This document shows, piece by piece, positions 6,493 through 23,616 of a DNA stretch of 33,198 nucleotides (position 1 is its first letter; the number at the start of each line of letters is the position of its first letter). Below the pieces are notes generated by a model, which saw only the letters and a list, made by a program, of their open reading frames with translations, did no database searches and was not told where the DNA came from. Source of the DNA: a virus; the IMG/VR virus record IMGVR_UViG_3300022539_000562; one strand, 5' to 3'. Made by a program: the position numbers and the translations under genes.

Positions 6493-6509
6493 TTTTCTCC
6501 TTCAATATA

Positions 6510-6538: not shown

Positions 6539-6540
6539 AT

Positions 6541-7282: not shown

Positions 7283-7755
7283 TATAAATCCTTTAACATT
7301 GAAAATAAATTAAAATCACGAATATATTGTGAAGTTTTTATATTTTTAAAAATTGTATTGTTAAATTCTTTACTTATATTTAGCATATCTTTGGTTTCCA
7401 TATTAAAAACATCTTTAGATTTCATATTTTTTCCTGTTATTTCTTGAAAATAAATAACTCTTGTTCCTGTTGTATTTAATATTTGTCTATAATATTTGTT
7501 TCTAAAAGAAAATATTCTTCTTTTTTCACCTTGATAATTTAGCATAATTAAATTACTTGTTCGCATCCAATTATTATCCAATTGTGTTTTTATATATTGT
7601 GTAATTGGAATGACTGAATACCCAAACTGTAAACTCAAAGGTTGCATTTTATTTTTAGATTGGCTATATATTTCTAAAAAATCATTTTTCCAATCACAAT
7701 ATATTATTATTAAGTCTCCTGTTTTTTTATTTATAAATATTCTATTTATTATCAT
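7282..7755 (-). CDS. hypothetical protein, paralog family B
   Basis: IFINKKTGDLII ... YIKTQLDNNW ... RIFSFRNKYYRQ. Confidence 0.8.
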   Translation of the reverse strand: MIINRIFINKKTGDLIIIYCDWKNDFLEIYSQSKNKMQPLSLQFGYSVIPITQYIKTQLDNNWMRTSNLIMLNYQGEKRRIFSFRNKYYRQILNTTGTRVIYFQEITGKNMKSKDVFNMETKDMLNISKEFNNTIFKNIKTSQYIRDFNLFSMLKDL

Positions 7756-7756
7756 T

Positions 7757-8236: not shown

Positions 8237-8245
8237 CTTCTTTTT

Positions 8246-8653: not shown

Positions 8654-8660
8654 ATTTCTC

Positions 8661-9083: not shown

Positions 9084-9092
9084 TTTATTCCT

Positions 9093-9925: not shown

Positions 9926-9932
9926 TATACTC

Positions 9933-10424
9933 CTATTGAGTTATATTTATAAAATCTTTTTGTATTCTTGTAGAAAGTGTTTTAAAAAATATATTATTCA
10001 GATAACTCACAATACTTTTATCTGTAATATTTGAATCCAAATCCATTTCCCAATAACTACTACACAACTGAAAAATATCAGTACATTGTTTAACAGTTGT
10101 TTGATTTATTTTATTTAAAACTTTTCCACCTTTTATAAAATTATAAAAATACTTATTTTTTATTCTCATTAATCTTATAGAGATATGTTTAAAATAACAT
10201 ATTCGCATATTATTTACTATTTCGTATCCTGTTTTTTTATAATATGCTATGTTTAAATTTTTTTGTTTTTCTTTTATTAAATTATGTATAGGCAATATAT
10301 TACCTATTATATCTATTTTTTTTATATCAAATCGTTTTTTTTGATATACGCCATAAGATAAATATATCAAAAAATCGTTAGTTTGCTTATTAAATAATAT
10401 TTTTTCTATTTGATATGTTATCAT
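9933..10424 (-). CDS. hypothetical protein, distant family B
   Basis: ILFNKQTNDFLIY ... RLMRIKNKYF. Confidence 0.7.
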   Translation of the reverse strand: MITYQIEKILFNKQTNDFLIYLSYGVYQKKRFDIKKIDIIGNILPIHNLIKEKQKNLNIAYYKKTGYEIVNNMRICYFKHISIRLMRIKNKYFYNFIKGGKVLNKINQTTVKQCTDIFQLCSSYWEMDLDSNITDKSIVSYLNNIFFKTLSTRIQKDFINITQ

Positions 10425-10426
10425 AG

Positions 10427-10437
10427 GTTTACAGTTT
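10427..10437 (-). repeat. AAACTGTAAAC intergenic motif copy
   Basis: Exact 11-mer between the stop at 10442 and the ATG at 10424. Confidence 0.85.
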
Positions 10438-10441
10438 CAGG

Positions 10442-10804
10442 TTATCTTCTTTTAAATTTTAATTTCTTAATTTCATCTTTTAATTCTGGAATTACATAAT
10501 TTATAAATACATAAATAAAAATCATTCCCCATTCTTCTGGTAAAATATGTATCATAATATCATTGTTTAAATCTCTTTTATAAAGTCTTTTATAAACTTC
10601 ATCAGTAATAAATGTTTTATCTTTCATAATTGCTATTTCACTATCTTGACAAAATACTCTTTTCATTCCATCTTTTTGAATTTCATCATAATTTTTACAA
10701 TAAGTTCCAGGTGCAAATTGAGTAGAAATTGTTATACCATTTTTAAACTCTATAAAAAAACCAGCATTGTGATATGATATTTTAAAACATCCTTCTTTTT
10801 TCAT
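10442..10804 (-). CDS. hypothetical protein
   Basis: 120-aa ORF (FKNGITISTQFAPGTYCKN ... SEIAI), GGAG SD. Confidence 0.75.
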   Translation of the reverse strand: MKKEGCFKISYHNAGFFIEFKNGITISTQFAPGTYCKNYDEIQKDGMKRVFCQDSEIAIMKDKTFITDEVYKRLYKRDLNNDIMIHILPEEWGMIFIYVFINYVIPELKDEIKKLKFKRR

Positions 10805-11055
10805 TCTATTTCTCCAATCATAAAAGCAACTCTTTCATTTTTAAAAAATAAATCTTGCAAAAACATTTCAAACTCATGATATTGTCCTGTTTCCCCTTTA
10901 AAATAGTTGAGAACATTTGCTAATCTTTTTGGAGAAAAATATAAATAAATATAGTAATCGAACATAGAATCTCCTTTGTATATTTTTGAACTTATTCTAT
11001 ATTCATTAGGATTTAATAATTTAATTACTTTTTTAATTTTTTTTTCTCTATTCAT
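10801..11055 (-). CDS. hypothetical protein, probable paralog of 1397..1648
   Basis: Shared DYYxxxYF and E.FL..LF...V.F pattern. Confidence 0.65.
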   Translation of the reverse strand: MNREKKIKKVIKLLNPNEYRISSKIYKGDSMFDYYIYLYFSPKRLANVLNYFKGETGQYHEFEMFLQDLFFKNERVAFMIGEIE

Positions 11056-11067
11056 TATTTTGCTTTT

Positions 11068-11292
11068 TTAATTTATTTTTATACCCATTTCTTTACATAC
11101 TTCTTCTAATTCTTTTTCTCGTCTCATATATTCTTTAATATGTTCAATCCATATATTTTCTATTTCATTAAGTTCTTCGTATAGTTTTATCAATTTTTTT
11201 ACACTTTTTAAATATCCTGTAGGAAATGTGCTACCATTACGCATTTCACATTGTATTTTATTGATTTCTTCTAATATTTTTTCTTTTTTCAT
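11068..11292 (-). CDS. hypothetical protein
   Basis: 74-aa ORF with GGGAG SD. Confidence 0.7.
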   Translation of the reverse strand: MKKEKILEEINKIQCEMRNGSTFPTGYLKSVKKLIKLYEELNEIENIWIEHIKEYMRREKELEEVCKEMGIKIN

Positions 11293-11349
11293 TTTATCTC
11301 CCTTTTAGCCATAGTACTTTTTAAACTATGGGATTTTTAAAATTCGTTT

Positions 11350-11871
11350 TTATATTGCTCTCTCAGTATTTTTCAATGGACAATTAGGACATTCTTTTTC
11401 ATGTAATAGACGTATCTCTTTTGCATAAATACCTCTTATTTCATAATAAGCATTACACAACCTGCTGAAAATCTCTGCTCCTGGGTTAAAATAAGTATCT
11501 TTTGCCTTCTCATAAAGATTTTTTATTTCTATCGCAAGACTTTTATTAGAATGTTCACTATCATAAAGAATGTTGCGTACATTAGAAAAAATGTCTTGAA
11601 CTTTCAAAAATTCCTTCCATTGTTTTTCATGACGCAAAACCCACGCTTCATCATATAGTTTATGAGCATCAACAAGTGCTTTTGGAAATTCTCCTTTAAC
11701 AGGTTTAATTAATTTCAATCTTAATTCTGCTTTTGGAACATCTTGTGGATAATGTTCATTTGGTTCAGTTGCAATTCTTTGATGATGACAAATAGCATCT
11801 TTATATTCTTCATCACTCAAGTATTCAGCAAGCATTAAATAATAAGTGTGCCAATACCATTTTTTACTCAT
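11350..11871 (-). CDS. hypothetical phage protein with C-terminal H-x3-CPNC
   Basis: WYWH N-terminus, LHEKECPNCP C-terminus; AAGGAG SD. Confidence 0.75.
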   Translation of the reverse strand: MSKKWYWHTYYLMLAEYLSDEEYKDAICHHQRIATEPNEHYPQDVPKAELRLKLIKPVKGEFPKALVDAHKLYDEAWVLRHEKQWKEFLKVQDIFSNVRNILYDSEHSNKSLAIEIKNLYEKAKDTYFNPGAEIFSRLCNAYYEIRGIYAKEIRLLHEKECPNCPLKNTERAI

Positions 11872-12428
11872 TTCTCTCCTTCTTGTAAAAGTTTATATGT
11901 ATATTTTTCTAATAATTTTTTATTTTTTAAAACATTTGAATAAATTATTTCAAGAGTAAACCAAAATCTTTTTGGATGTTTAGAAATTTTAAAGTGTAAA
12001 ATTTCATGTGCTATTACATATTCTAATAGATTTCGTGGAACATATTGTAATTTTGTATTTAAAGCAATTAAATTTTTACTAATATAACATCTGCCCCAAT
12101 TATTTTTATTAGTGAAAAATTCATAATTTGGTTTCTTTAATGCTAATTTTTTTGAATACTTTTTAATAAAAAATCTAATATCTTTATTAAAATTTCCATT
12201 AGAATATTCTGGTAGTTTTTTACAAGTGTTTATATATTCATTATTTTTTAAAACCCATTCTGTATTTTTTTTAATAAAATCTATACCATTTCCTAAAATT
12301 TTTTTACTACCACTAATTATAAAAACACCATTCCATTTCATACTTATTTGTTTTTTAGTGGGATTTTTATAATTTTTATAAACAACTCTATATTCAATTT
12401 CTTGTCCATTAAGTATTATTGTTTTCAT
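11868..12428 (-). CDS. YgjP/DUF45-like zincin metallopeptidase-fold protein
   Basis: WGRC...IALN..L...P..LLEYVIAHEILH...H...FW signature. Confidence 0.88.
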   Translation of the reverse strand: MKTIILNGQEIEYRVVYKNYKNPTKKQISMKWNGVFIISGSKKILGNGIDFIKKNTEWVLKNNEYINTCKKLPEYSNGNFNKDIRFFIKKYSKKLALKKPNYEFFTNKNNWGRCYISKNLIALNTKLQYVPRNLLEYVIAHEILHFKISKHPKRFWFTLEIIYSNVLKNKKLLEKYTYKLLQEGEK

Positions 12429-12541
12429 TTATCTGGTTGTATAGAAAATTATAAATACAATTAATCCTATTAAAATTGTACCAATTCCAAATGCAAGATA
12501 AATTATTTTTTCTGTTCCCATTTATTTCACCCCTTAATACA

Positions 12542-12570
12542 ATTATAAACTATTTTTGAGAGAAAGTCAA
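12542..12570 (-). promoter_or_regulatory. sigma70/sigmaA-type promoter
   Basis: TTGACT-17 nt-TATAAT; 12536..12570 is identical to 22369..22403. Confidence 0.9.
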
Positions 12571-12581
12571 GTTTACAGTTT
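12571..12581 (-). repeat. AAACTGTAAAC motif copy
   Basis: Exact copy directly abutting the -35 hexamer. Confidence 0.85.
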
Positions 12582-12600
12582 AAGGTTTTTTTGATATATT

Positions 12601-12999
12601 TTATTCGTCTTTTTCATCTATTATATTTTCTAAATTACTAATTTCTTTTTCTAAATCACAAGTTTCATCAATTAATTTGTCATTTTCTCTTTCTAAATTA
12701 TCATTTTCTATTTCTAAATTCTCATTGTTTTTTTCTAAATCTACAATTTCATCTTCTAATTCTTCAACTTTATATTCTAAATCATTTCTTTCGCCTTCTA
12801 ATTCATCTTTCATTTCTTCCATTTCATCTCTTTCTGCTACTGTATCACTAACTTTATCTTCTAAATCTTCTTGGTCAATTTCTAAATCATCAATTCTATT
12901 TTGCAAATCAGCATTTGCTTCCATTACTTCATCATATTTCTGTGCTTTCCTTTCCAATTTTGCCAAATATTTTATTTTATCTTTATATTTTTTTTCCAT
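12601..12999 (-). CDS. highly acidic heptad-repeat coiled-coil protein
   Basis: About 13 LE-type heptads (LEIDQED LEDKVSD ... LEKNNEN LEIENDN LERENDK). Confidence 0.8.
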   Translation of the reverse strand: MEKKYKDKIKYLAKLERKAQKYDEVMEANADLQNRIDDLEIDQEDLEDKVSDTVAERDEMEEMKDELEGERNDLEYKVEELEDEIVDLEKNNENLEIENDNLERENDKLIDETCDLEKEISNLENIIDEKDE

Positions 13000-13287
13000 T
13001 TTCTTTTTTTATTTAATTTCTTTTTCTTTTTATATTTCCTATCATAAATACCTCTTTTAATTAAATCTTCTTTAATAAGAAATAGTTCTTTGTTTTTTGG
13101 TATCATTTTACTAATTTCCTTTTTATTTCTTTTAATTTTTCCCTTTCATTAATTCTACAATTTTATCTAATGCTTTTCTAATACCTCTGATATTAGAAGC
13201 AATTGATAGAAATTTTAAGAATAGAGTTATATATACAATTGTTTGTATTAATAAAGCCAATTCCTCAATAGTCATCTTTACCCCTTT

Positions 13288-13689
13288 TTAATTATTTTTA
13301 ATTTTTGATATTATATTTGTGTACATTTTTACAATTTTTTCGTAGTCTTTTGCTCCAAATTCATCAATAATATTTAATACACACATCATTAAATCACTTA
13401 ATTCACCTATATATTTAAGTAATTTATTATATCTTTTATCAGTTTCATTAATTAATTTGTATAATGCTTTTTCTTTACTCAATTTTTTTCCTTTATAAGT
13501 TGTAAAAAGTTTATTTTTCTTTTTATTACATTTTCCACAAAGCCAAGCATCATAAATTTTATCACCATTTTTTAATTTTATTTTATAAGCATCCCAATCA
13601 TTTAAAACATCTCCACAACCTGCACACAAATCATATGTAATAGGATTAAGTTCTATATCTCTAAATTCTTCGTATATTATTTCTTGCAT
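13288..13689 (-). CDS. zinc-finger protein
   Basis: CAGC ... CGKC. Confidence 0.7.
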   Translation of the reverse strand: MQEIIYEEFRDIELNPITYDLCAGCGDVLNDWDAYKIKLKNGDKIYDAWLCGKCNKKKNKLFTTYKGKKLSKEKALYKLINETDKRYNKLLKYIGELSDLMMCVLNIIDEFGAKDYEKIVKMYTNIISKIKNN

Positions 13690-13697
13690 TTTAGATT

Positions 13698-13922
13698 TTA
13701 AGTTCCAGCAATTTGTATTTTTATTATAGCGTCTTTTATACTGATTTCAAGTACAATTTTATTATTTCCTTTTAAATATCCTATAATTTGTTCATCACTT
13801 CTTACAGCATTAAAAATAACTTCTTTTATATTACTAAACATTGTCATTACATTATTCTTTATATCAGGTTCACTTATTTCTGGTACAAAAATTTTTTTCA
13901 ATATATTAATTATTTTACCCAT
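13698..13922 (-). CDS. hypothetical protein
   Basis: AAGGAG SD, 74 aa. Confidence 0.7.
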   Translation of the reverse strand: MGKIINILKKIFVPEISEPDIKNNVMTMFSNIKEVIFNAVRSDEQIIGYLKGNNKIVLEISIKDAIIKIQIAGT

Positions 13923-13936
13923 TTTCTATCTCCTTT

Positions 13937-14263
13937 TTATTTCAATTTATTAATGTAAGAAGAAACAACTAAATTAGAAAGCAAAGCATTTATACTTTTA
14001 ATATTTATTATATCTATATAAGATGGATGAGAGATTTTTAATAATTCAATATTAAATAATAAATTAGTTAATATTTTTATTATTACATCATTATGCTCTA
14101 ATATAAGCATATTTTCTACAGTATTGCAATATTCATCCAAGATTTCATTTCTATTTTGTTTTGTTAAGATTTCTTTTTTAATTTTATTTATTTTTTCTTG
14201 TTCCATACTTATTTTTTCCTTATATAAATAATATAAAATAATATACTTATTAAACTCATCCAA
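13937..14263 (-). CDS. hypothetical protein
   Basis: ORF in operon; true start may be the ATG of MEQEK. Confidence 0.55.
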   Translation of the reverse strand: MDEFNKYIILYYLYKEKISMEQEKINKIKKEILTKQNRNEILDEYCNTVENMLILEHNDVIIKILTNLLFNIELLKISHPSYIDIINIKSINALLSNLVVSSYINKLK

Positions 14264-14617
14264 ATTAATACACCCAAAATTATTAAAATATCTAACATAA
14301 TTTCTCCTTTTTATTTAGCACTAATAATAAATTCCAATTTAACATCTCTATCATAAAATTCTTTTTCAATTTTTTTATACCAAATTTTTAATCCTTCTGG
14401 ACAACCATTTTTATTAATCATTACATTTTGAATTGCCCACAATAATTCTTCATCTGACAATCTTTTAGGATTTGGCAGTTTCATTTATCTCTCTTTCCAT
14501 TTTCTATCTATAAAAAATAATCCAAAAATTATAATTACTATAATCAAACTTATTATTCCCATACCAAGAATAAATCTCATATTGCCACTCATTTTTTCTC
14601 CTTTCATTTATTTTTAA

Positions 14618-14628
14618 GTTTACAGTTT
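14618..14628 (-). repeat. AAACTGTAAAC motif copy
   Basis: Exact copy downstream of the clamp gene stop and upstream of an AAGGAG SD. Confidence 0.85.
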
Positions 14629-14650
14629 GCGTGTTTTTTTCTATTTCATT

Positions 14651-15805
14651 TTAACTTATTCTAATGGGCATTATTATATGCTTAAAATTATCATCTTTAA
14701 TTATTACAGGACTAAGATTATCTTTAATTAAAATTTCAACTGTATCTTTTTCAATTGCTTTTAATGTATCAATTACATATTTAACATTTAATCTTAATTC
14801 TAAACCATCTACTATATTAGAATGTATAGACAATTCATTATTAATTTCTATTTCAGGATTACTTCGAAGAGAATCCTTATATTCTATTTTAAGACTATCA
14901 CAATTCACCATATTAAAAGTAATAAAATCATTACTCCACTTATCAACAAATTTTGACATCTGAATAGCATTAGTTAGTAATTGTTTTCTATTTACTTCAA
15001 TAAATTGCTTATGTTTTTTGTCGCTTGTTACATAATCAGTTTTAGGATAGTTTAAATCTTTAGTTCTGTCTGTTATTTCTACATTATCAAATTTTAAACC
15101 TGCTCCAAAACCAGTTTTAAATATTTGTATATTCGTAATCTTTTTTATATTCTTTACAATATTATTTAAAAATAATCCATCAATTAGATATTCCTTGCTT
15201 GTAATTTTTGCACAATTAGTATCTTTAATTTTAACTAATTTGTATAATCCTATTCTATAACTATCAGTACAACACAATTCTGAAAAATCATTTCCTACTT
15301 TTATTAATGTTTTAGTTAGTACAGGTCTTGTTTCGTCTTTACTAATTGCATAAATTATTTTAGACAATATTGTTTTTAAATCCAATTTGCTAATGTTTAA
15401 AGTATTACTCTTTTTATAATCTAACATAGGATAGTCTTTTTCAGGATAACTTCTAATTTTAAATTCCATTGCAGTTTCAATTATTACAGGTTTATCATTA
15501 TCTACTTCTGTTACTTCTACTGCTTTAATTTTAATAAAATCTGTTGTAGCATTATTTACTATTTTATTAAATTTATTAAATTCAAATACAGCAGAACCTT
15601 TATTAATAATTGTTGCAGGTATATTAATTTTAATAATTTTATCTAAATCGGTAGTATAAATTACAACTTTGTTATTTACAGTTTGAATCCTTAAACATTT
15701 TAATATCGGCAATAATGCTTTGTTACTAATAGCAAATTTAAGCAATTTTAAATTTTCTTTTAATATTTTTTTCTTTAGTATTAATTCCATAGCAGGTTTT
15801 TTCAT
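14651..15805 (-). CDS. dnaN: DNA polymerase III beta sliding clamp-like protein
   Basis: 384 aa; LPILK, TTDLD, YAISKDETRPVL, CTDSYRI, YP, LNVKYVID, C-terminal IIMPIR match bacterial DnaN. Confidence 0.92.
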   Translation of the reverse strand: MKKPAMELILKKKILKENLKLLKFAISNKALLPILKCLRIQTVNNKVVIYTTDLDKIIKINIPATIINKGSAVFEFNKFNKIVNNATTDFIKIKAVEVTEVDNDKPVIIETAMEFKIRSYPEKDYPMLDYKKSNTLNISKLDLKTILSKIIYAISKDETRPVLTKTLIKVGNDFSELCCTDSYRIGLYKLVKIKDTNCAKITSKEYLIDGLFLNNIVKNIKKITNIQIFKTGFGAGLKFDNVEITDRTKDLNYPKTDYVTSDKKHKQFIEVNRKQLLTNAIQMSKFVDKWSNDFITFNMVNCDSLKIEYKDSLRSNPEIEINNELSIHSNIVDGLELRLNVKYVIDTLKAIEKDTVEILIKDNLSPVIIKDDNFKHIIMPIRIS

Positions 15806-15825
15806 TTTTTTACCCCCTCAATATA

Positions 15826-15854
15826 ATTATAAAGGATATTTTCTTAAAAGTCAA
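15826..15854 (-). promoter_or_regulatory. sigma70/sigmaA-type promoter for the clamp gene
   Basis: TTGACT-17 nt-TATAAT then TATATTGAGGGGG. Confidence 0.9.
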
Positions 15855-15873
15855 GATTTTTAGTTATATTTGA

Positions 15874-15884
15874 GTTTACAGTTT
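15874..15884 (-). repeat. AAACTGTAAAC motif copy
   Basis: Exact copy 4 nt after the stop of the RlpA-like gene. Confidence 0.85.
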
Positions 15885-15888
15885 CCAA

Positions 15889-16245
15889 TTAATAAATTAT
15901 TCTCCATTTTACATTTGTTACACCTATTTCTAATAATCCTAACATCTCTGCAACTCTATAAGACAAATCAAATTCTCTACCATATTTATCAAAATCACCT
16001 CTATCATTACATTTTGCTATAACTAATACACTTTTATATTTAAACTCTACCAAAGTTCCAAAAGGCAATTTATTGTGAGCAAATGTTAAATCTGTACTAT
16101 TGTAAATTTCTCCACTGGTAGTTTCTTTGCTAAAAAATGATTCTCCATACCAACTCATTTTACTAACTTGCCAAGGAATTGCCGAAAAAAATTTTGCTCC
16201 TACTAAAAAGAATAATAAAATAATTATTAAATTTTTATTTTTCAT
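15889..16245 (-). CDS. RlpA-like double-psi beta-barrel (septal lytic transglycosylase family) with signal/anchor
   Basis: SWYG, TTSGEIYN, AHNKLPFGT, NDRG, REFDLS..A..LG; hydrophobic N-terminus. Confidence 0.9.
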   Translation of the reverse strand: MKNKNLIIILLFFLVGAKFFSAIPWQVSKMSWYGESFFSKETTSGEIYNSTDLTFAHNKLPFGTLVEFKYKSVLVIAKCNDRGDFDKYGREFDLSYRVAEMLGLLEIGVTNVKWRIIY

Positions 16246-16568
16246 TTTTCTTCTTTTTTAAATTTTATCTTTTGCAAAGGAATACAATTTCTAACTTCCA
16301 TATTGTTTATCCAAAATATATTCTCTTTTAAATTATTAAGATTTTTAATTAAAGCAAATCCATCTGTTGACATTCTACCACTCGGAGATATATCATTCCA
16401 TTTCAAATATTTATAAAGTATTTTATCATCTGGAAAATAAAAATAATCATTTTTTTTTGGTTGCCATAAATATCTGTGCCAATCATAACTATATTTAATT
16501 CCCTTTTTTAAAATAAATTCTTTTGAAATTTTAAAATTAATTTTTTTATCTTTATAAATTGCTTTCAT
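16242..16568 (-). CDS. hypothetical protein
   Basis: 108-aa ORF with SD. Confidence 0.7.
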   Translation of the reverse strand: MKAIYKDKKINFKISKEFILKKGIKYSYDWHRYLWQPKKNDYFYFPDDKILYKYLKWNDISPSGRMSTDGFALIKNLNNLKENIFWINNMEVRNCIPLQKIKFKKEEK

Positions 16569-16785
16569 TTATTCTTCCTTTGTAATAATTAAGTTTACTT
16601 TTTAAGGTTTTTTCTCTTTTTTATATCCTTTGCAACAAATTTTTCTAATCTCTCCAAATATCTTGTTAATTCAGAAAGTTTTAGTCCTAAATTTTTTGCT
16701 AATGCCATTTTTGTTATTTTACCTTTATAATATAATATAAGCCATTTGAATAATTTTTCTCTTAACATTTTTTGCTCCCTTTCGA

Positions 16786-16796
16786 GTTTACAGTTT
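16786..16796 (-). repeat. AAACTGTAAAC motif copy
   Basis: Exact copy between the stop at 16805 and a GGGAG SD. Confidence 0.85.
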
Positions 16797-16804
16797 GAAG
16801 TTTT

Positions 16805-17002
16805 TTAATTTATAATTTTACTTTTTTTATCCATTATTAATAACATCAGAAATGTAATTCTACTGGTCAATTCTAAAACAATTATTTCATTATCTTTAAA
16901 TTGTTCTTTTGTAACAAGTAATCTATTCATTTCTTGCTTTAGAGTTTTTATATCACTTTTTTCATAAATTTCTGTCCAATTCATTTTTTTTCCTTTATCC
17001 AA
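16805..17002 (-). CDS. hypothetical protein
   Basis: Short ORF; likely start is the ATG of MNWTE after AAGGA. Confidence 0.6.
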   Translation of the reverse strand: MDKGKKMNWTEIYEKSDIKTLKQEMNRLLVTKEQFKDNEIIVLELTSRITFLMLLIMDKKSKIIN

Positions 17003-17195
17003 ATATTTTCATATATTTATCTTTATATACAAATTTCCTAATAATTCTTTTAATAATATTGTAATCATACATATAAGCAATACTGGGTAAATTTAAACAT
17101 CTTGGACATATCAAAGAAAAAGAATACTCTGAAAATTTACAACCTTTTATAAAACATATAAATCTTCTTATTTTAAATACAAATTGATTAATCAT
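16995..17195 (-). CDS. hypothetical Cys-containing protein
   Basis: Start moved to the ATG at 17195 after a GAGGA SD (track start lies within the promoter leader); CPRC. Confidence 0.6.
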   Translation of the reverse strand: MINQFVFKIRRFICFIKGCKFSEYSFSLICPRCLNLPSIAYMYDYNIIKRIIRKFVYKDKYMKIFG

Positions 17196-17232
17196 TTTCC
17201 TCTTCGAGTTTAAAAAATATTCCTTCAATATA

Positions 17233-17261
17233 ATTATAATAGATTTTTATATAAAAGTCTA
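17233..17261 (-). promoter_or_regulatory. sigma70/sigmaA-type promoter
   Basis: TAGACT-17 nt-TATAAT then TATATTGAAGG. Confidence 0.8.
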
Positions 17262-17437
17262 ATTTATTTTTTTAAATATGCCCAAAGATACTTAATACAT
17301 TTTATAACAAATATTACAAAAGTTATAATTGTAAGCCAACCCCATATTTGATTTTTTGTTAGGTGATATATTATTTTAAATAGTAATGCAGTTATCAAAA
17401 TATGGTCATTTGCTAATGACTTTGTATACATTCTCAT

Positions 17438-17590
17438 TTATTTCACATCCTTAATTTTAAATAAAAAATAATTAAATTTTCCACAATTTTCACACATAAA
17501 TAGTTCTTTTGGTCTTTCGTTAAAATTACCAAACAAACCATCAATTTGTTCTAAATTGTCCGAGTCACATTCTTTACATTTATGTTTCAT
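17438..17590 (-). CDS. small zinc-ribbon protein (not in ORF track)
   Basis: Manual translation MKHKCKECDS...FMCENCGKF... Confidence 0.7.
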   Translation of the reverse strand: MKHKCKECDSDNLEQIDGLFGNFNERPKELFMCENCGKFNYFLFKIKDVK

Positions 17591-17767
17591 TTATTTCACA
17601 TCTTTTTTTAAATAAATATGGCTTATCTTTTTTTAATTCTTTTAATTTTTTGTTTAAAGCATACTTGCAATTAAACATTCCAAATATTAATATTTCTTGT
17701 AAATCTTTTATATCACTTTTATTTAATTTTTGCATTTATTTTTCTCCCTTTAATAAATTCAATAATT

Positions 17768-18037
17768 TTATAATTTAATTTCTAATTTCTCAATAGGCAA
17801 TTCTTTTATTACTTCTATATAACTATAATTATCGTTTAATTTATTTCTTATTATACTATAATCTTTTCCTCCAAAATCCCAATCACTTTGTAATTTTGAA
17901 ACAATATTTTTTACTATTTTAGTTATTGATTCATTAGTTAGAGTTGTTTTAATTAATAATAGTATTCCTTCCTCATCACATTCTCTATTCTCGTGAAATA
18001 TACTTATTTCTACATATCTACCATTTATCATTCTCAT
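17768..18037 (-). CDS. hypothetical protein, tandem paralog of 18044..18280
   Basis: DEEG...IKTTLT...V..I..K; AAGGAGG SD. Confidence 0.75.
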   Translation of the reverse strand: MRMINGRYVEISIFHENRECDEEGILLLIKTTLTNESITKIVKNIVSKLQSDWDFGGKDYSIIRNKLNDNYSYIEVIKELPIEKLEIKL

Positions 18038-18043
18038 ACCTCC

Positions 18044-18280
18044 TTAAATTCTTACACTATAATTTTTTTTAGTTGGTATAATTTCAATTTCGTCGTCTTT
18101 ATTAAGTTCTTCTATTATTTCATCATCATACCAATCAATATAATCTTCGTCAAGCCATTTATTTATTATGTCGCCAACTTTAAATTGAAACTGTTTTTCA
18201 GTCAATTCTGTCTTAATCATAAAACTACACTTTTCTCCCTCTTCGTCAAAAAAAGTTGCTATTATTATTTCTCTTTCCAT
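18044..18280 (-). CDS. acidic hypothetical protein, tandem paralog of 17768..18037
   Basis: DEEG...IKTELT...V..I..K; AAGGAG SD. Confidence 0.75.
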   Translation of the reverse strand: MEREIIIATFFDEEGEKCSFMIKTELTEKQFQFKVGDIINKWLDEDYIDWYDDEIIEELNKDDEIEIIPTKKNYSVRI

Positions 18281-18313
18281 TATCTATCTCCTTTTTAACA
18301 ATTTATTTCATTT

Positions 18314-18553
18314 TTACAATTTATGTCTTAATTTCCAAAAGAAAAAACTAATATCTTCCCACATTTTACTTTTTCTTTTTTTACCTAAATTATAATTAGT
18401 CCAAGCATAATGTTCTGCCCAATGCTCTAATCTCCAAAGCATCTCTCCAACATTAGGAAAATCATCCCATAACAAAACTAAAATATTATCTTGTCCTGGC
18501 ATAGGAATTTCTATCATTTCTCTTTTTTCCAAATCTTTTTTTGTTTTTTTCAT
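18314..18553 (-). CDS. Trp-rich hypothetical protein
   Basis: First gene after the promoter at 18594. Confidence 0.7.
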   Translation of the reverse strand: MKKTKKDLEKREMIEIPMPGQDNILVLLWDDFPNVGEMLWRLEHWAEHYAWTNYNLGKKRKSKMWEDISFFFWKLRHKL

Positions 18554-18593
18554 TTTGTCTTCCTTTAAGTTTAAAAAACATCTCCTTAATATA

Positions 18594-18622
18594 ATTATAA
18601 CTGATTTTTTAGTAAAAGTCTA
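18594..18622 (-). promoter_or_regulatory. sigma70/sigmaA-type promoter
   Basis: TAGACT-17 nt-TATAAT then TATATTAAGGAG. Confidence 0.82.
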
Positions 18623-18631
18623 ATTTTTCAA

Positions 18632-18642
18632 GTTTACAGTTT
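18632..18642 (-). repeat. AAACTGTAAAC motif copy
   Basis: Exact copy 6 nt after the stop at 18649 and 9 nt before a -35. Confidence 0.85.
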
Positions 18643-18648
18643 GCCTTT

Positions 18649-18870
18649 TTACTCTAAAATTTTATCTATATTTTTTGATACTAAACTGCTCAAATAATTA
18701 TTTATATTTTGGATAATAGTCTCGTGGTCATTTATTTTTTCAAGTTCTTTTAACAATCCTAATGGAAAACTATTTAAATTTTTAATTTGCACAAATAATC
18801 CAATTTCTTTTTTATGCTCTTCATACCATTTATCTAATATTCTTTTTTGTTTCTTATATAAACCTCTCAT
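18649..18870 (-). CDS. hypothetical protein
   Basis: 73 aa, G-rich SD. Confidence 0.7.
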   Translation of the reverse strand: MRGLYKKQKRILDKWYEEHKKEIGLFVQIKNLNSFPLGLLKELEKINDHETIIQNINNYLSSLVSKNIDKILE

Positions 18871-18900
18871 TTCATCCCCCTTAAATTATTTTTTTTATTT

Positions 18901-19113
18901 TTACCAATGCCAGTTTTTCTCAAAATGTTCTATTGCTTTGATAACATCCTCTTTTTTAACTGCTCTTTGCGTTTTCATAATTAACCAATCAACCCAATTT
19001 TGTAATTGATATATACTTATCGGACTTATAAATATATCATTTTTTATTAACAATTTATCTAATTCTTCGCTTAACACTATCATATTGTCATTTTTTTTAT
19101 CGTTGTTACTCAT
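18901..19113 (-). CDS. hypothetical protein
   Basis: 70 aa, AAGGAG SD. Confidence 0.7.
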   Translation of the reverse strand: MSNNDKKNDNMIVLSEELDKLLIKNDIFISPISIYQLQNWVDWLIMKTQRAVKKEDVIKAIEHFEKNWHW

Positions 19114-19136
19114 TTATTTTATCTCCTTTTTTAGTT

Positions 19137-19322
19137 TTATTTAATAATTGAAGCAATGTCCAAATCTGTTATTATTTCACCTTTTATTGTTTCATATTCT
19201 TGCACATAAGGTTTTTGTCCTCCAAGTTCATATTCTACATTTTCTAAAGTTTTTTGTCCACCTTTTAATTCAACCTCTCTCATATCCAAAAGTAATACTT
19301 TTATTATTTTTTCTTTACTCAT
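19137..19322 (-). CDS. hypothetical protein
   Basis: 61 aa, AAGGAG SD; internal ELKGGQK/ELGGQK repeat. Confidence 0.7.
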   Translation of the reverse strand: MSKEKIIKVLLLDMREVELKGGQKTLENVEYELGGQKPYVQEYETIKGEIITDLDIASIIK

Positions 19323-19338
19323 TTTTTCTCCTTTTTGA

Positions 19339-19349
19339 GTTTACACTTT
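19339..19349 (-). repeat. AAAGTGTAAAC single-mismatch motif copy
   Basis: Same position as exact copies: 6 nt after the stop at 19356 and just before an SD. Confidence 0.75.
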
Positions 19350-19355
19350 CCAGTT

Positions 19356-19631
19356 TTATATACTTATTACTCCAGTTAGTACATCATCCATCCATTCCAT
19401 TTCCACATTTGCTTGTTCAGAAGGTTTTAAGTACTCATATAATTGAGTATCATAAAAATTAGGATTTCTCCAGTTTTTTATATATTTTTCAAATGCTTTT
19501 TTGACTTTTTTTATTTGCCAAAAACTTTGACTAATAAGAAAAGTTATTGTATCATAATCCTCTGAGTCTATTGCCGCTTTATATTCTTGTTTCAAAGTTT
19601 TTAATTTATATGCCATTTCCATTTCCTCCAT
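19356..19631 (-). CDS. hypothetical protein
   Basis: 91-aa ORF; a GGAGG near the start suggests a slightly downstream ATG. Confidence 0.7.
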   Translation of the reverse strand: MEEMEMAYKLKTLKQEYKAAIDSEDYDTITFLISQSFWQIKKVKKAFEKYIKNWRNPNFYDTQLYEYLKPSEQANVEMEWMDDVLTGVISI

Positions 19632-19639
19632 TTAATTAT

Positions 19640-19789
19640 TTATTGAAAAGAATTTAATAATTTTTCTTTATTATAACTTTTTGTTTTGTCTCCACATTTT
19701 GGACATTCTTCATAAATATAAATTTTGCCTCTCCATATTTTCTCTTTGGATTTCATTACTATTCCACATTTTCCACAAATAGTCATCAT
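19640..19789 (-). CDS. small zinc-ribbon protein (not in ORF track)
   Basis: Manual translation MMTICGKCG...EECPKCGD... Confidence 0.7.
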   Translation of the reverse strand: MMTICGKCGIVMKSKEKIWRGKIYIYEECPKCGDKTKSYNKEKLLNSFQ

Positions 19790-19810
19790 TTCACCTTCTT
19801 TCCTTTTTAA

Positions 19811-19821
19811 GTTTACAGTTT
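19811..19821 (-). repeat. AAACTGTAAAC motif copy
   Basis: Exact intergenic copy. Confidence 0.85.
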
Positions 19822-19834
19822 CCCAATTATTTAT

Positions 19835-20005
19835 TTATAAACCTGTTTTTAAAATTTTATAACAATTTTCACACAAATAAACTAAATTTTTTGTTCTATA
19901 GAAAGTCTTTTCTAAAAATCTATGTTCGCATTTCAAACATTTAAAATATTCAAAATTTCTTTTTCTTGTTATTTTTCTAAATTCTTTTAAATTTATTTTT
20001 TTCAT
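19835..20005 (-). CDS. small zinc-ribbon protein (not in ORF track)
   Basis: Manual translation contains FKCLKCE...LCENCY. Confidence 0.7.
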   Translation of the reverse strand: MKKINLKEFRKITRKRNFEYFKCLKCEHRFLEKTFYRTKNLVYLCENCYKILKTGL

Positions 20006-20019
20006 TTCTTTCTTTCTAT

Positions 20020-20448
20020 TCAGATTATAATTTTTAAAATTTTATTTTTATACTTGCCACTCAAAGCATTTCCATTTTTAGTTATTTGTTTTAATTCTGC
20101 TTTACTAAAATAATCAGTTGATAAAGCACAACTACCAGAATAAATTTTAACCTTAAATATTTTATGTAATTTTTTAAATAAATTCGCAATTATTTTATAT
20201 AAATGTTCCTCTTTAATTTCAAAACCTGACGCTTTCCAATCTCCTGCTCCTAATTTTTTATAATTTGGACATCCTCGTCCTGTTTCTTTTAGTCTTTTTT
20301 TCTCAATTGCTATATCTTTATTACTCCAAAACCATAAACCTCTTTGATATTTTTTTAATTCTCCTTGTTCCTCTTGTTTAGATATCCAATTTTCTATTTT
20401 GTCAGTTTCTTTTTTATTAACTAATTGATAAAAGATATATGCTCCCAT
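20020..20448 (-). CDS. hypothetical protein
   Basis: 142 aa, AAGGAG SD. Confidence 0.75.
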   Translation of the reverse strand: MGAYIFYQLVNKKETDKIENWISKQEEQGELKKYQRGLWFWSNKDIAIEKKRLKETGRGCPNYKKLGAGDWKASGFEIKEEHLYKIIANLFKKLHKIFKVKIYSGSCALSTDYFSKAELKQITKNGNALSGKYKNKILKIII

Positions 20449-20451
20449 ATT

Positions 20452-20640
20452 TCAAAAATCTCCTTTGTTTATTTGTTTTACAATTTCCTTTCTTACCCAG
20501 TGAGTATCCCGATGTCCGCAAGGAAGAGTCATCATTTTCATTATGCGAAAACATTTTCGGTTTGCTTCTCTCAAATCAGTTTTTTTAATTTCCATCTCAT
20601 ATTTTTTGCCACATCTATTGCATAATACTTTCATTTTCAT
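20452..20640 (-). CDS. small zinc-binding protein
   Basis: CNRC ... PCGH. Confidence 0.65.
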   Translation of the reverse strand: MKMKVLCNRCGKKYEMEIKKTDLREANRKCFRIMKMMTLPCGHRDTHWVRKEIVKQINKGDF

Positions 20641-21015
20641 TTTTCACCTTCTTTTATTTATTTATATCACATTATTCTTTTTCTATTCTTATGTTCATTA
20701 GGTTGACAGTTTCGTCCTTTGTCAAATGTACTAATTTTATAGGAAATAATCCAAATTGAATGCCAAATTTTTCACTATCAGTTAATTTATTGTATATTTT
20801 TGTTAATTCTTTTTTGCTTTTCATTTCTTATTTCTCCTTTTTATTTTTGTAATCTTTTAGTTATTTCACTATCAATTAAATCAATTTGGTCAGTATCAAT
20901 ATTTTCAATTCTGACTATTCTATTTCTTAACTCTACTAATTCAGTAAATTTTTTATTTTTTAAATTTTCTTTTACTATTTTTATATCTTTTTTTTCCACT
21001 TTTTTTCCTCTTTGA

Positions 21016-21026
21016 GTTTACAGTTT
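21016..21026 (-). repeat. AAACTGTAAAC motif copy
   Basis: Exact copy, CGC-flanked, followed by a GAGG SD and GTG. Confidence 0.85.
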
Positions 21027-21219
21027 GCGTTTTTTTAACATAAAATATCATATTTACTTTTTGCTAATTTTAAAATTAATTTTGTTTCTTTAATAGTCAA
21101 TGGATTATATCCAAATCCAATTAAATTATCATTTATCATTCTAATTTCACTTTTTATATGATTTATGTAATCTCTTTTATTTAAAAATTCTTTATAATAA
21201 ATTTCCATTTTTTTCCTTT

Positions 21220-21492
21220 TTATATTAAATCAAAAATTGATACTCTTACAGAATTTATAATTTCATAAATATTATTCCATGTTATTTTTCTTGTAAATTT
21301 TCTAATAAAATATCTTTTTCTGAAAGATATACAAGGTTCTGGATTGCCAAAAACTAATTTTCTTATAGGTTGTTCGTCCAAAGTAATTTCTTCAGGTAGT
21401 TTTTCTTTTAGTTCTTTGTCCCATTTTTCTATATCTTTTTTATTTTTTCCAAATCTGCTATCTGCAATAAAATTAAATGTTAAGGTTCTCAT
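21220..21492 (-). CDS. hypothetical protein
   Basis: 90 aa, AAGGAG SD. Confidence 0.7.
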   Translation of the reverse strand: MRTLTFNFIADSRFGKNKKDIEKWDKELKEKLPEEITLDEQPIRKLVFGNPEPCISFRKRYFIRKFTRKITWNNIYEIINSVRVSIFDLI

Positions 21493-21517
21493 TTTTTAAA
21501 TCTCCTTTTTTATAAAA

Positions 21518-21727
21518 TTATTTAGGATTTATTATATCATCACTATATTTATATTGTTTTTTATGATTTTCCTCATTTAGTCCGCTTCCAAAAAATCCCA
21601 AATTATTGCCATCAAAATCATAATCATAACTACATTTAAAACAATGCTGAATTTTATCCCTAAAATAAATTTTAGTTAATCTCCCACAACATTTTATTCT
21701 TTTTTTAATTCTTTTGTCTATTTTCAT
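21518..21727 (-). CDS. small zinc-ribbon-like protein
   Basis: KCCG ... CFKC. Confidence 0.65.
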   Translation of the reverse strand: MKIDKRIKKRIKCCGRLTKIYFRDKIQHCFKCSYDYDFDGNNLGFFGSGLNEENHKKQYKYSDDIINPK

Positions 21728-21741
21728 TTTTTTCTTCTTTT

Positions 21742-21924
21742 TTATAAAAGATTATCTATCATAGATGTAATTTCTGTTCTCATATAGCGTAATTCTATAA
21801 TGATTTCGTCTAAAAGATATTTTTCTAAATCATCTTTTTTGCTTTCATTAAAAATTATTTTAAGATTTTTCCAAGTTTCATTAATTTTTTGGTCTATTTT
21901 TTTCTCTGTTTTTTCTTTACTCAT
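21742..21924 (-). CDS. hypothetical protein
   Basis: 60 aa, GAGGAG SD. Confidence 0.65.
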   Translation of the reverse strand: MSKEKTEKKIDQKINETWKNLKIIFNESKKDDLEKYLLDEIIIELRYMRTEITSMIDNLL

Positions 21925-22042
21925 TTTGCTCCTCTAACTAAAATTTTTTTACTTTCCTTTTTTCTTTTTTTAATTGCACAATCTACCATTTTATCGATTA
22001 ATTCATTTTTCTCTTTGTTATTCATTTTTCTCCTTTTTAAAA

Positions 22043-22354
22043 TTATTCTTTAAAAATATGCATAACAGAATGCTCTATAAAATCTCCAGCCCAATTATTC
22101 CCCTCAAATAAATTGTCAAATTCTTGTCCTAAATTTTTAAATAATTTATATCCATTTATATAAATTGCTCCATGATAAATTAAATCAGCAAGAATTCCAT
22201 CATAATAAAAAGCGAAATCTCCTTTATAATAATGGTCGTTTTCAAATTTATATGATTCTTTAATTTCAGGAGCATCTGTTTTTTTGGCAACTTTATTAAT
22301 CCACCTTTTTATTTTATTTTTTATTTCAAATCTTTTTAAAATTTTCTTTGTCAT
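22043..22354 (-). CDS. hypothetical protein
   Basis: 103 aa directly after the promoter at 22375. Confidence 0.75.
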   Translation of the reverse strand: MTKKILKRFEIKNKIKRWINKVAKKTDAPEIKESYKFENDHYYKGDFAFYYDGILADLIYHGAIYINGYKLFKNLGQEFDNLFEGNNWAGDFIEHSVMHIFKE

Positions 22355-22374
22355 TTAAATCTCCCCTCAATACA

Positions 22375-22403
22375 ATTATAAACTATTTTTGAGAGAAAGT
22401 CAA
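22375..22403 (-). promoter_or_regulatory. sigma70/sigmaA-type promoter
   Basis: TTGACT-17 nt-TATAAT; identical 35-bp copy at 12536..12570. Confidence 0.9.
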
Positions 22404-22413
22404 TTTTTTTTTT

Positions 22414-22641
22414 TTAACTTAATATTCCGCCAATTGATAAAATTTTATCTATTTTATTTTCTGCTATTGCTTGGGCTTGACTTAAAGCCAATATATTTTT
22501 AGTTTCTTCTTTTTCTTCTGGATGTCCACAAATCCAAGTTTTTAAATTATACTTATCATTTTTTTGTTTTTCAATAGAAATCCAATATTCTCTATACTTA
22601 TATCTAAATTTTCCAGTTTTTAAATAGGTATCATAAGCCAT
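22414..22641 (-). CDS. hypothetical protein
   Basis: 75 aa, AGGAGG SD. Confidence 0.7.
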   Translation of the reverse strand: MAYDTYLKTGKFRYKYREYWISIEKQKNDKYNLKTWICGHPEEKEETKNILALSQAQAIAENKIDKILSIGGILS

Positions 22642-22711
22642 TTTCTACCTCCTAATTCTTTGGGGTATTGATTTTTTAGTAATCATAAGAAAATTTTCCA
22701 GTTTTGTTTTT

Positions 22712-23233
22712 TCAGTTCAAAATTATTTTATTTTTAATAATCCATTTAATAGCAGGATAATTTAATTTTCCTTGTATTAATAAACTGACTGCTATTCTAT
22801 AAATATCCTTCTTGTAATTTTTAATAAATTCTACTACTTCTATTTGCCATTTTTCTGTATTATATTTCCTTTTTAATTTTTTTATAGTTTCTTCTGCGTG
22901 TCTTTTATCTCCTTCACATCCAGAATATCTTTCTATTTTTAAAAAATACCATTCAGAATAAAATCCTACCATATCATTTTTTATACCTTCTATTTCTATA
23001 TCATCAGTAAATAAACTGAATAATTTTCTTAATTGTACTGAATTAGCAATTTCGGTTGTTCCACCATTCCAAGTGAAATATACTTTATTAGGTTTAAAAT
23101 ATTTAGAATACCAACTAAAAACAGTGTGTCCTGCTTCGTGAAATGCCGTTTGTAAGTCTCTTCGTGAATATTGTTTTTCTAATTGTTTTAAGTCAATCAT
23201 TTTTTTTGCAAGAAAGTAATTTTTTGCTCTCAC
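22712..23233 (-). CDS. stand-alone FtsH/M41-like peptidase domain protein
   Basis: TAFHEAGH, GGT, downstream E and GCEGD pattern; no AAA domain. Confidence 0.75.
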   Translation of the reverse strand: MRAKNYFLAKKMIDLKQLEKQYSRRDLQTAFHEAGHTVFSWYSKYFKPNKVYFTWNGGTTEIANSVQLRKLFSLFTDDIEIEGIKNDMVGFYSEWYFLKIERYSGCEGDKRHAEETIKKLKRKYNTEKWQIEVVEFIKNYKKDIYRIAVSLLIQGKLNYPAIKWIIKNKIILN

Positions 23234-23465
23234 AATTTTTTATAATTTCAGAATTTCTAATTAACTTTTCTCAAAAATCAAATATTAAAAATCTGATACT
23301 TATTTCTATTATTTTTTCTTTTTTTATTTTTGGATTTTCCAGTAGAAATTCATCTATCATCATTTTAATATTCATATTTTCTGATACTATTATATTTAAT
23401 TTATATTCTTGCTTATTTTTTAATTTTATATAAACCTCTTTAATAATCATTTTTCTCCTCTTTGA

Positions 23466-23476
23466 GTTTACAGTTT
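23466..23476 (-). repeat. AAACTGTAAAC motif copy
   Basis: Exact copy downstream of the 23517 promoter, just before a GAGGAG SD. Confidence 0.85.
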
Positions 23477-23516
23477 GCGGTTTTTCTTTTTAAATTTTAA
23501 AAGTCCTCCTAATATA

Positions 23517-23545
23517 ATTATAAAGGATTTTCACAAAAAAGTCCA
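23517..23545 (-). promoter_or_regulatory. sigma70/sigmaA-type promoter
   Basis: TGGACT-17 nt-TATAAT then TATATTAGGAGG. Confidence 0.8.
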
Positions 23546-23554
23546 GTTTTTCGA

Positions 23555-23565
23555 GTTTACAGTTT
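23555..23565 (-). repeat. AAACTGTAAAC motif copy
   Basis: Exact copy 9 nt upstream of the -35. Confidence 0.85.
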
Positions 23566-23578
23566 GCGGTTTTTAGAC

Positions 23579-23616
23579 AAAAAAAAATGCTCAATCAGTA
23601 ATTACTGATTGAGCAT
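23579..23616 (-). terminator. intrinsic terminator (perfect 30-bp palindrome plus U-tract)
   Basis: ATGCTCAATCAGTAA|TTACTGATTGAGCAT at 23587..23616, then a T run on the minus strand, just after the stop at 23628. Confidence 0.8.

Follow-up and report, generated by a model that had tools for sequence, protein, structure and literature searches.

We found that the small non-structural genes of an uncultured AT-rich phage are separated by a 21-base one-directional site, which is likely a phage-specific promoter with its transcription start (+1) at the purine three bases past an 11-mer core, as judged from sequence. Numbered from this purine, the site would read WAAVYKS (-20 to -14, variable), AAACTGTAAAC (-13 to -3), T, Y and R at +1. 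It may be recognized, as a single element without a -35 box, by a sigma factor or RNA polymerase of the phage itself and would provide the region with a second set of starts beside seven host-type sigma-70 promoters. From the anatomy of the site we infer its promoter activity, the start position, the protein that reads it and its early or middle timing. This reading is none of the three offered by the earlier note (repressor or roadblock sites, integron-like junctions, and RNA processing or antitermination signals), yet it is the one that best fits this anatomy.

The exact core occurs in ten minus-strand intergenic copies and one plus-strand copy within a gene of the window, i.e., the whole 33,198-nt stretch of DNA that was analysed, which is part of a 117-kb contig. 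The earlier note had placed these ten correctly, together with a copy at 19339 that carries one mismatch; all lie on the minus (coding) strand. Its statement that every copy is co-oriented with transcription holds for 10 of the 11 exact copies, the plus-strand one having been overlooked. When the window was scanned for the core with at most one mismatch, 15 matches were obtained against 1.80 expected, a number reached in none of 100 shuffles, and AAACTGTAAACYYR was found 11 times against 0.01 expected. The strand and position bias for which a motif scan had been proposed was evident in the window: all 11 previously listed sites are wholly intergenic, compared with 7.3% of 11-mer positions in the 10.4–23.6 kb region, and 11 of 12 strong copies of this non-palindromic motif are both sense and intergenic, upstream of starts. 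The window holds no core copy to the right of 23565. The plus-strand full site (7617..7637; core 7624-7634) is positioned inside ORF 7282-7755, has flanks more similar to those of the motif than at 99% of random positions, and would fire antisense. As previously noted, the motif forms no hairpin: local folding is absent at ten of 11 sites, and the eleventh folds because of a terminator upstream of it.

Following transcription along the minus strand, the first full site (23552..23572; core 23555-23565; predicted +1 at 23552) has its core start 13 nt past the U-tract of this terminator and its end 9 nt before the -35 box of promoter P23545. The next one (23463..23483; core 23466; predicted +1 at 23463) would give a 13-nt leader to ATG 23450 and is identical over 24 nt to the site at 21013..21033 (core 21016), with a predicted leader of 14 nt to GTG 20999. 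These are followed by sites at 19808..19828 (core 19811; leader 19 nt) and 19336..19356 (core 19339, one mismatch; leader 14 nt), and by one at 18629..18649 (core 18632) with the -35 box of P18622 lying 9 nt further on. The site at 16783..16803 (core 16786) precedes, with a 15-nt leader, a gene encoding a 57-aa protein resembling helix-turn-helix (HTH) proteins, while that at 15871..15891 (core 15874) is located 19 nt before the -35 box of P15854, the promoter preceding the beta-clamp gene. The last three are found at 14615..14635 (core 14618; leader 23 nt), at 12568..12588 (core 12571), where the last three bases of the site form the TTG of the P12570 -35 box, and at 10424..10444 (core 10427), where the predicted +1 coincides with the A of ATG 10424. 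Cores begin 8, 13, 6, 6, 8, 4, 22, 19 and 4 nt after the upstream stop codon (six of nine within the 4–8 nt reported before) and end 15, 16, 21, 16, 17, 25 and 2 nt before the start codon, and the distances to -35 boxes of 0, 9, 9 and 19 nt were confirmed. Two 3' half-sites, TAAACTYRAA, are present at 18564..18573 and 17203..17212, each 20 nt past the -10 box of a promoter (P18622 and P17261, respectively), with leaders of 13 and 10 nt.

The sigma-70-type promoters of the window are seven related minus-strand copies, each with TATAAT-N5-T|R: P23545 (23517..23545), P22403 (22375..22403), P18622 (18594..18622), P17261 (17233..17261), P15854 (15826..15854), P12570 (12542..12570) and P6538 (6510..6538). 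A full or half site lies no more than 50 bp from five of them; P22403, which shares 91% identity over 56 nt with the P12570 region, and P6538 are devoid of the motif. The portal gene likewise has a promoter of this type, and the motif is absent there. The only terminator found in a scan of 8–27 kb is an intrinsic one (23587..23616, minus strand; 13-bp stem and U-tract) just upstream of the first site. For the 96-nt stretch holding it, a folding energy of -29.6 kcal/mol was computed (z -5.5). Only one of the seven promoters was found to have a hairpin beside it, P6538 lying outside the scanned region.

Several features of the repeat point to a promoter. The base following the core is succeeded by a pyrimidine-purine pair in all 12 full sites and both half-sites, as opposed to 26 of 119 unrelated viral loci holding the core plus T. 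Since both positions vary (C6/T5 and A7/G4), it is the base class that is kept and not the letter. The TYRA described earlier is thus better written as (T/C)-Y-R, the final A being present at 10 of 11 sites only. At the last site, the predicted start falls on the first base of a 163-aa gene (9933..10424, minus strand) that heads a paralogue array, and the message would therefore be leaderless. This gene has no Shine-Dalgarno (SD) sequence, the two other in-frame starts in its first 150 nt (TTG) also lack one, and its paralogues align from ATG 10424, which supports this start. The first site, in turn, lies directly after a strong terminator, a place needing a promoter. The predicted leaders (13, 14, 19, 14, 15, 23 and 0 nt; 13 and 10 nt for the half-sites) are mostly comparable to those of the sigma-70 promoters (14, 14, 14 and 11 nt). 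At four promoters the site precedes the -35 box or just touches it and never falls on the -10 box or +1, as tandem promoters would show. Under the promoter reading, six junctions would have the site directly before the ribosome-binding site, four would carry it in tandem upstream of a sigma-70 promoter and one would have a leaderless start. Finally, in the chosen register A-11 and T-7 are invariant, the interval between -7 and +1 is six bases, the same as for the sigma-70 promoters, and no conserved word is found near -35 at the sites. A-11 and T-7 are bases with a role in promoters. The Y-R, A-11/T-7 and -35 points are partly circular, because the register was chosen after seeing where the conservation ends.

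Other observations argue against a promoter. A scan of 64 proteins of the window yielded neither a sigma factor nor an RNA polymerase, and its six frames contain no DxDGD signature. The coincidence with the ATG concerns a single site, with a chance of about 1 in 7 within its 17-nt gap, and by a crude scan four of 41 genes with a gap of at least 10 nt have no SD word. Similar leader lengths are expected from any SD-abutting element, the arrangement would be dense, with eleven promoters spread over 13 kb and a single terminator detected by the scan, and the two half-sites are unexplained as working promoters. There is also a cautionary precedent: promoters of phage 7-11 called from sequence only (PMC4331800) were not borne out by experiment, as far as the available text of PMC8948821 describes.

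Among known systems, a conserved non-palindromic word without a -35 box upstream of genes is shared with the available descriptions of AR9, of P23-45 (AT-rich vRNAP promoters, by description) and of LUZ19/phiKMV (PMC5312081; PMC10770324; PMC10914365). AR9 has early promoters of the form AAATATATATTAT-(6N)-G and late ones of the form AACA-(6N)-TA/G, with some genes having both kinds and seven promoters being antisense (PMC5312081, excerpted text), and LUZ19 uses a 20-bp promoter with one antisense copy (PMC10914365, excerpted text). As in these accounts of promoters read by phage RNA polymerases, the word ends either on a purine start or 6 nt ahead of it, two promoter kinds stand in tandem and an occasional copy is antisense; unlike in them, the sequence is a different one and the polymerase was not found in the window. 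The gp36-dependent middle/late promoters of phiEco32 are similarly single elements without a -35 box beside sigma-70 early promoters, and AACTGTAAA has six of nine letters in common with their tAATGTAtA (PMC8948821; PMC12276001; the parts available). The likeness is, however, 3 nt out of register: in those parts AATGTA is centred at -11.5 with starts 6–8 bp downstream, whereas ACTGTA here would span -11 to -6 in the chosen register, and if the phiEco32 register were applied, +1 would fall within ATG 10424 or beyond it. We therefore do not assign the site to the gp36 type, and no gp36 homologue was seen in the window.

The class of signal is known; no close relative of the phage was found in the collections searched. 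If the site is a promoter, its consensus, drawn from 12 sites and with one leaderless gene pinning down the predicted start, is unusually clear. Once found, the cognate sigma factor or RNA polymerase would supply both an orthogonal promoter-polymerase pair and a two-tier scheme of early transcription that can be tested. For stoperator- or SAS-like repeats elsewhere, the pyrimidine-purine step and ATG-abutting copies should be checked before naming them operators or cassette junctions.

The main rival, which we regard as unlikely, is that a phage DNA-binding protein on the asymmetric site shuts off the early region by occlusion at promoters and polar roadblocks between genes. Of this proposal of the earlier note, a sequence-specific reader and the L5-like layout fit: like the cluster A operators and stoperators, the sites are asymmetric, co-oriented with transcription, and found in short intergenic spaces and near promoters (PMC9283540, the part available). 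Three degenerate heptads can be read in the site, the first matching AAACTGT at 4.3 of 7 positions (intergenic background, 2.2), and the gaps to -35 boxes are roughly in helical phase. Yet this phasing rests on three values, because both 9-nt gaps come from promoter units that are homologous, with 21 of 25 upstream bases in common. Unlike in cluster A stoperators, the -10 boxes and sigma-70 starts are all free of the site, and one copy abuts an ATG; neither the Y-R pair nor the tight placement of this copy between a stop codon and an ATG without an SD is explained. A binder could be encoded by the 57-aa gene directly behind the site at 16786 (16595..16768, minus strand), contrary to the earlier view that no cognate protein is identifiable. 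Its three-helix HTH-like product is a candidate binder or accessory factor, as yet unproven, with a below-cut-off Pfam HTH_24 match (E 0.002) and a model of pLDDT 86.7 giving no fold match at E≤0.001. An Atlas value of 0.85 to sigma-70 region 4 clusters is a lead only. Apart from this single HTH-like protein, no two-domain repressor (HTH plus Stoperator domain) was recognized in the window. In turn, the start-associated sequences (SAS) of cluster K phages are also asymmetric, of one orientation with a rare reversed copy, and restricted to non-structural genes, but according to the available text they contain the SD and stand 3–7 bp before the start (PMC3203893). The present repeat differs from SAS in that its SD is a distinct element further downstream, its core-to-start gaps span 2–25 nt and a promoter follows four of its sites.

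Improbable, in our estimation, is that the site marks a crossover point, with a left arm after the stop codon and a right arm before the SD. Gene units would be gained, lost or exchanged there, and promoter-proximal half-sites would act as attI. The two half-sites fused to sigma-70 promoters do show some shuffling, as far as sequence comparison can tell. They occupy, 20 nt past the -10 box, the exact position of the ATG in three other promoters, and TAAACTYRAA is intergenic in all 11 minus-strand occurrences. P17261 is a mosaic, similar upstream to P6538 (20/25 and 14/17) and downstream to P18622 (16/22). Left and right flanks vary independently (Mantel r 0.03, of low power) and closer sites are more alike (rho -0.34, the pairs not being independent). 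However, both half-sites possibly stem from one event, and the mosaics are explicable by ordinary homologous exchange between repeated promoters without a dedicated system. Integron attC sites have a GTTRRRY core, and cassettes mostly carry one gene. The integron-like junctions suggested previously fail on these points: GTTRRRY is absent from either strand of the motif, the sites have no hairpin, inverted arms or attC core, and zero to nine genes separate neighbouring sites. Neither IntI among the 64 scanned proteins nor any other recombinase among the window proteins was found. The promoter stem-loop (PeSL) cassettes of T4-type phages resemble the seven sigma-70 promoters in being repeated promoter-SD units with small genes and signs of shuffling, but PeSLs, in the available descriptions (PMC2839356; PMC4122927), carry a stem-loop, which the motif does not form and which a single hairpin beside these promoters in 8–27 kb does not match.

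We give still less credence to an RNA signal, in which a nuclease or RNA-binding factor reads an unstructured word in early messages and either cuts Y|R or modifies the elongating polymerase. The strict co-orientation and single-stranded context are as this idea of the earlier note would have it, the half-sites fall inside predicted sigma-70 transcripts, and a Y|R cut would equally yield a leaderless message at 10427. It is weakened, though, by the position of the first site, which a strong terminator precedes, its U-tract ending 13 nt before the core; there are few terminators to read through, the copy at 7624 is antisense and no Rfam match exists in the window. Recognition would span about 20 nt, all on one side of the cut, which would be unusual for an RNase.

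Quite doubtful is a combination in which the site, besides acting as a promoter, serves as a dedicated crossover point that a phage recombinase cuts internally, each unit bringing its own start and leader and docking behind another unit or a host-type promoter. If true, this would be an integron-like system changing gene timing by swapping promoter halves, with the two half-sites as attI-like products.

Antisense sigma-70 promoters, for which plus-strand TTTACA would be the -35 box and which would transcribe back into the upstream gene, appear very unlikely: a -10 match of at least 5/6 at 16–18 nt accompanies four of nine stop-adjacent sites against 6.6% in matched background (P 0.002, post hoc) but is missing at seven of 11 sites, the spacing ranges from 16 to 18 whereas the clear phage promoters all have 17, and other conserved bases stay unexplained. 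Least probable of all is that XerD of the host, or another of its DNA-organising proteins, docks at the sites: TGTAAACT/C is identical to the XerD arms of Myxococcus xanthus and Syntrophus in the outer 8 of their 11 bases but has AAC for the inner TTA, the most conserved part in the available text of PMC2731167; a dif XerD arm was rejected, with no conserved inner TTAT and no XerC arm 6 bp away (ATAA at its expected end in one of 11 sites only), and the 12-mer has only one or two copies in each of five genomes picked for one match.

Besides the sites discussed above, one-mismatch minus-strand copies were found within coding sequence at 2900, 15674 and 20702, and a decayed copy (16590..16610, minus strand) overlaps the end of the HTH-like gene and precedes ORF 16242-16568.

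The 11-mer AAACTGTAAAC was found as stated in the earlier note, with ten exact copies on the minus strand (cores at 10427, 12571, 14618, 15874, 16786, 18632, 19811, 21016, 23466 and 23555) and a variant at 19339. All 11 of these sites lie wholly in intergenic sequence, as the note had claimed, compared with 7.3% of positions, and the window holds 15 matches with at most one mismatch versus 1.80 expected. The proposed co-orientation holds for the ten exact minus-strand copies, yet not for an exact plus-strand copy at 7624, overlooked at first reading, which lies inside a gene. Since its flanks outscore more than 99% of random positions, this copy is probably a member of the site family. Three further one-mismatch copies lie within coding regions, and their flanks are poor; two of them (20699-20712 and 2897-2910) also finish in a pyrimidine-purine pair, and the former, with the next ATG 59 nt on, could be a weak internal start. 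A hairpin had been denied, and indeed no site folds, the only fold being the terminator upstream of 23555.

The site extends beyond 11 bases. Aligned copies read WAAVYKS-AAACTGTAAAC-T-Y-R, and an A-rich stretch comes next. The letter of the pyrimidine Y (C in six, T in five) and of the purine R (A in seven, G in four) varies, while the base class never does. The Y-R pair is present in 12 of 12 full sites and in both half-sites, which retain the 3' part only (18564..18573 and 17203..17212, minus strand); of the 119 unrelated viral loci carrying the core plus T, 26 have it. The site is real and under strong selection. A candidate decayed site at 22642-22711 was dropped, as its alignment was unconvincing.

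We consider it somewhat probable that the site is a phage-specific promoter with R as the transcription start (+1), a register which was picked after the fact. In this register, every site has A at -11 and T at -7, and six bases lie between that T and +1, just as in the -10 boxes of the phage itself; no conservation is seen around -35. At site 10427, R coincides with the first base of ATG 10424. This gene lacks an SD, as do the two alternative in-frame starts near its 5' end, and the alignment with its paralogues begins at the same ATG; the message would therefore be leaderless. The coincidence with an ATG concerns one site only, and in a crude scan 4 of 41 well-spaced genes are without an SD word. 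From R to the next start, leaders measure 13, 14, 19, 14, 15 and 23 nt. Site 23555 directly follows a terminator (13-bp hairpin and U-tract, 13 nt from the core), a position that suits a promoter but not an RNA signal.

The region also holds seven related sigma-70-type promoters on the minus strand (P6538, P12570, P15854, P17261, P18622, P22403 and P23545). In all of them a spacer of 17 nt precedes TATAAT, and a T|purine step comes seven bases further, at an SD-like word; leaders of 14, 14, 14 and 11 nt were recorded for them. Wherever such a promoter comes after a site, the site is always upstream, the only room for a second promoter, since the first starts at the SD. The half-sites would be phage promoters whose upstream part was swapped for a host-type promoter. 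As the motif is absent from the portal gene, which has a promoter of the sigma-70 type, these phage promoters would act in the early or middle phase, not in the late one. A search of the window proteins revealed neither a sigma factor nor a polymerase. A general role in activating sigma-70 promoters was rejected: at 7 of the 11 sites, no promoter of that type follows. The sigma-70 promoter and SD units form near-identical pairs (92% and 91%; 6498-6556, 12519-12574, 17221-17279 and 22352-22407) ahead of unrelated genes, and one pair also shares the final codons of the upstream membrane-protein genes.

Most likely, the site adds another example to the known class of phage-specific promoters. Comparable promoters that consist of a single element and are used in tandem and antisense have been described in AR9 (PMC5312081), LUZ19 (PMC10914365), P23-45 (PMC10770324) and phiEco32 (PMC8948821, PMC12276001). 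The phiEco32 element shares six of nine letters with the present site, but three bases out of register, and the likeness is probably superficial. In phage 7-11, experiments later arrived at a consensus (PMC8948821) unlike the promoter that had been predicted from sequence only (PMC4331800), which is a warning for calls of this kind. The start-associated sequences of cluster K, as described in PMC3203893, contain the SD, unlike the present sites.

Among the alternatives, an L5-type network of operators and stoperators is unlikely, though the strongest of them. Orientation and position fit the L5 description (PMC9283540), a full or half site lies within 50 bp of five of the seven sigma-70-type promoters, and a 57-aa HTH-like gene stands behind site 16786, the HTH evidence consisting wholly of sub-threshold leads. 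However, none of the sites lies over a -10 or +1, and the network leaves both the ATG-abutting site 10427 and the Y-R pair unexplained. The HTH-like gene (protein P0002) terminates within a decayed site copy (16590-16610), and the C-terminus of a 93%-identical homologue differs at that point. An 85-aa gene (24821-25078) was dropped as a second HTH candidate, with a profile probability of 12%, no Atlas feature match and no fold match.

Recombination joints appear improbable. The two 3' half-sites start exactly at the ATG position of three other promoters and P17261 is a mosaic promoter, but the same traces are expected from ordinary exchange between repeated promoters, as reported for PeSLs (PMC2839356, PMC4122927); moreover, attC features fail and the genes between sites number 0-9. 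A Chi-like signal was rejected on account of the intergenic position of the sites and their length of about 21 bp. Three other rivals are weaker than the stoperator and recombination readings. Cutting of RNA at the site is decidedly improbable, given the position of 23555, and an Rfam search of the window gave no match. That the site serves as promoter and crossover point at once, a reading apart from these three, is likewise very doubtful. Antisense -35 boxes, seen at four of nine sites (P 0.002, post hoc), are a highly improbable explanation, and XerD docking scarcely merits belief: the outer 8 of 11 bases match (PMC2731167), but the match is limited to these, and the available text of PMC3025954 and PMC11894783 gives no XDS consensus.

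Searches by protein (portal, MoxR ATPase and HTH alignment) confirmed no related loci in viral contigs. Pattern scans for the core gave 119 viral loci from 29 of 64 parts of the collection, and further scans 40 loci, 17 metagenome loci, 10 genome loci and 12 loci. Multi-copy matches among the 119 were tandem 7-mer repeats; such (AAACTGT)n runs recur in unrelated viral contigs (L003, L006, L018, L028, L037, L040, L065, L102, L111 and others) and are distinct from the dispersed site. Out of the 79 loci L120-L198, a single one carries two exact, dispersed cores, and no match to the 12 window proteins tested was seen in any. No contig with a dispersed array was found in the viral, metagenome or genome collections scanned, and a literature search for the exact 11-mer met it in ten papers, of which the nine listed are unrelated by title.

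The window (24% G+C) belongs to a phage contig of about 117 kb. Its DNA occurs in one listed run, a marine sediment metagenome, from which it may originate; no RNA run was listed, which speaks neither for nor against any reading. Left of 25.1 kb lie about 73 mostly small genes on the minus strand, including a beta clamp, a MoxR-type ATPase with its vWA partner and a YgjP-like peptidase, as well as arrays of paralogues; beyond 26.7 kb, the plus strand encodes the portal and a ligase-domain protein. With portal homologues at 29-31% identity, the phage is close to a singleton. Phage records gave only about 25% identity for the portal and 22-26% for the clamp, and no DNA match to 16.5-24 kb. Eight of ten window proteins looked up are present in the protein collection, in clusters of 1-2 members. 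Short contigs carry the 93%-identical HTH homologue and an almost identical ATPase.

The phage-encoded clamp gene (14651-15805) stands alone between two sites; the T4 clamp serves transcription, and this one might too. Two divergent paralogue arrays (7282-10424 and 1641-3580; genes of 135-168 aa) have no family match, and the former is flanked by sense site 10427 and antisense site 7624. Between the portal and a probable head protease/scaffold gene, 28968-31445 encodes an 825-aa protein that has an ATP-dependent-ligase domain and a weak methyltransferase-like match. A second repeat family, TGAACAGGTATTAT/TTATCAGGTATTAT-like, occupies 25434-26292, where 13 CAGGTA copies on both strands lie within about 860 bp of the non-coding gap in which gene strand and skew switch; this looks like an origin or packaging region. 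The non-coding strand-switch gap also carries a 15-base direct repeat in two minus-strand copies (25123-25137 and 25318-25332).
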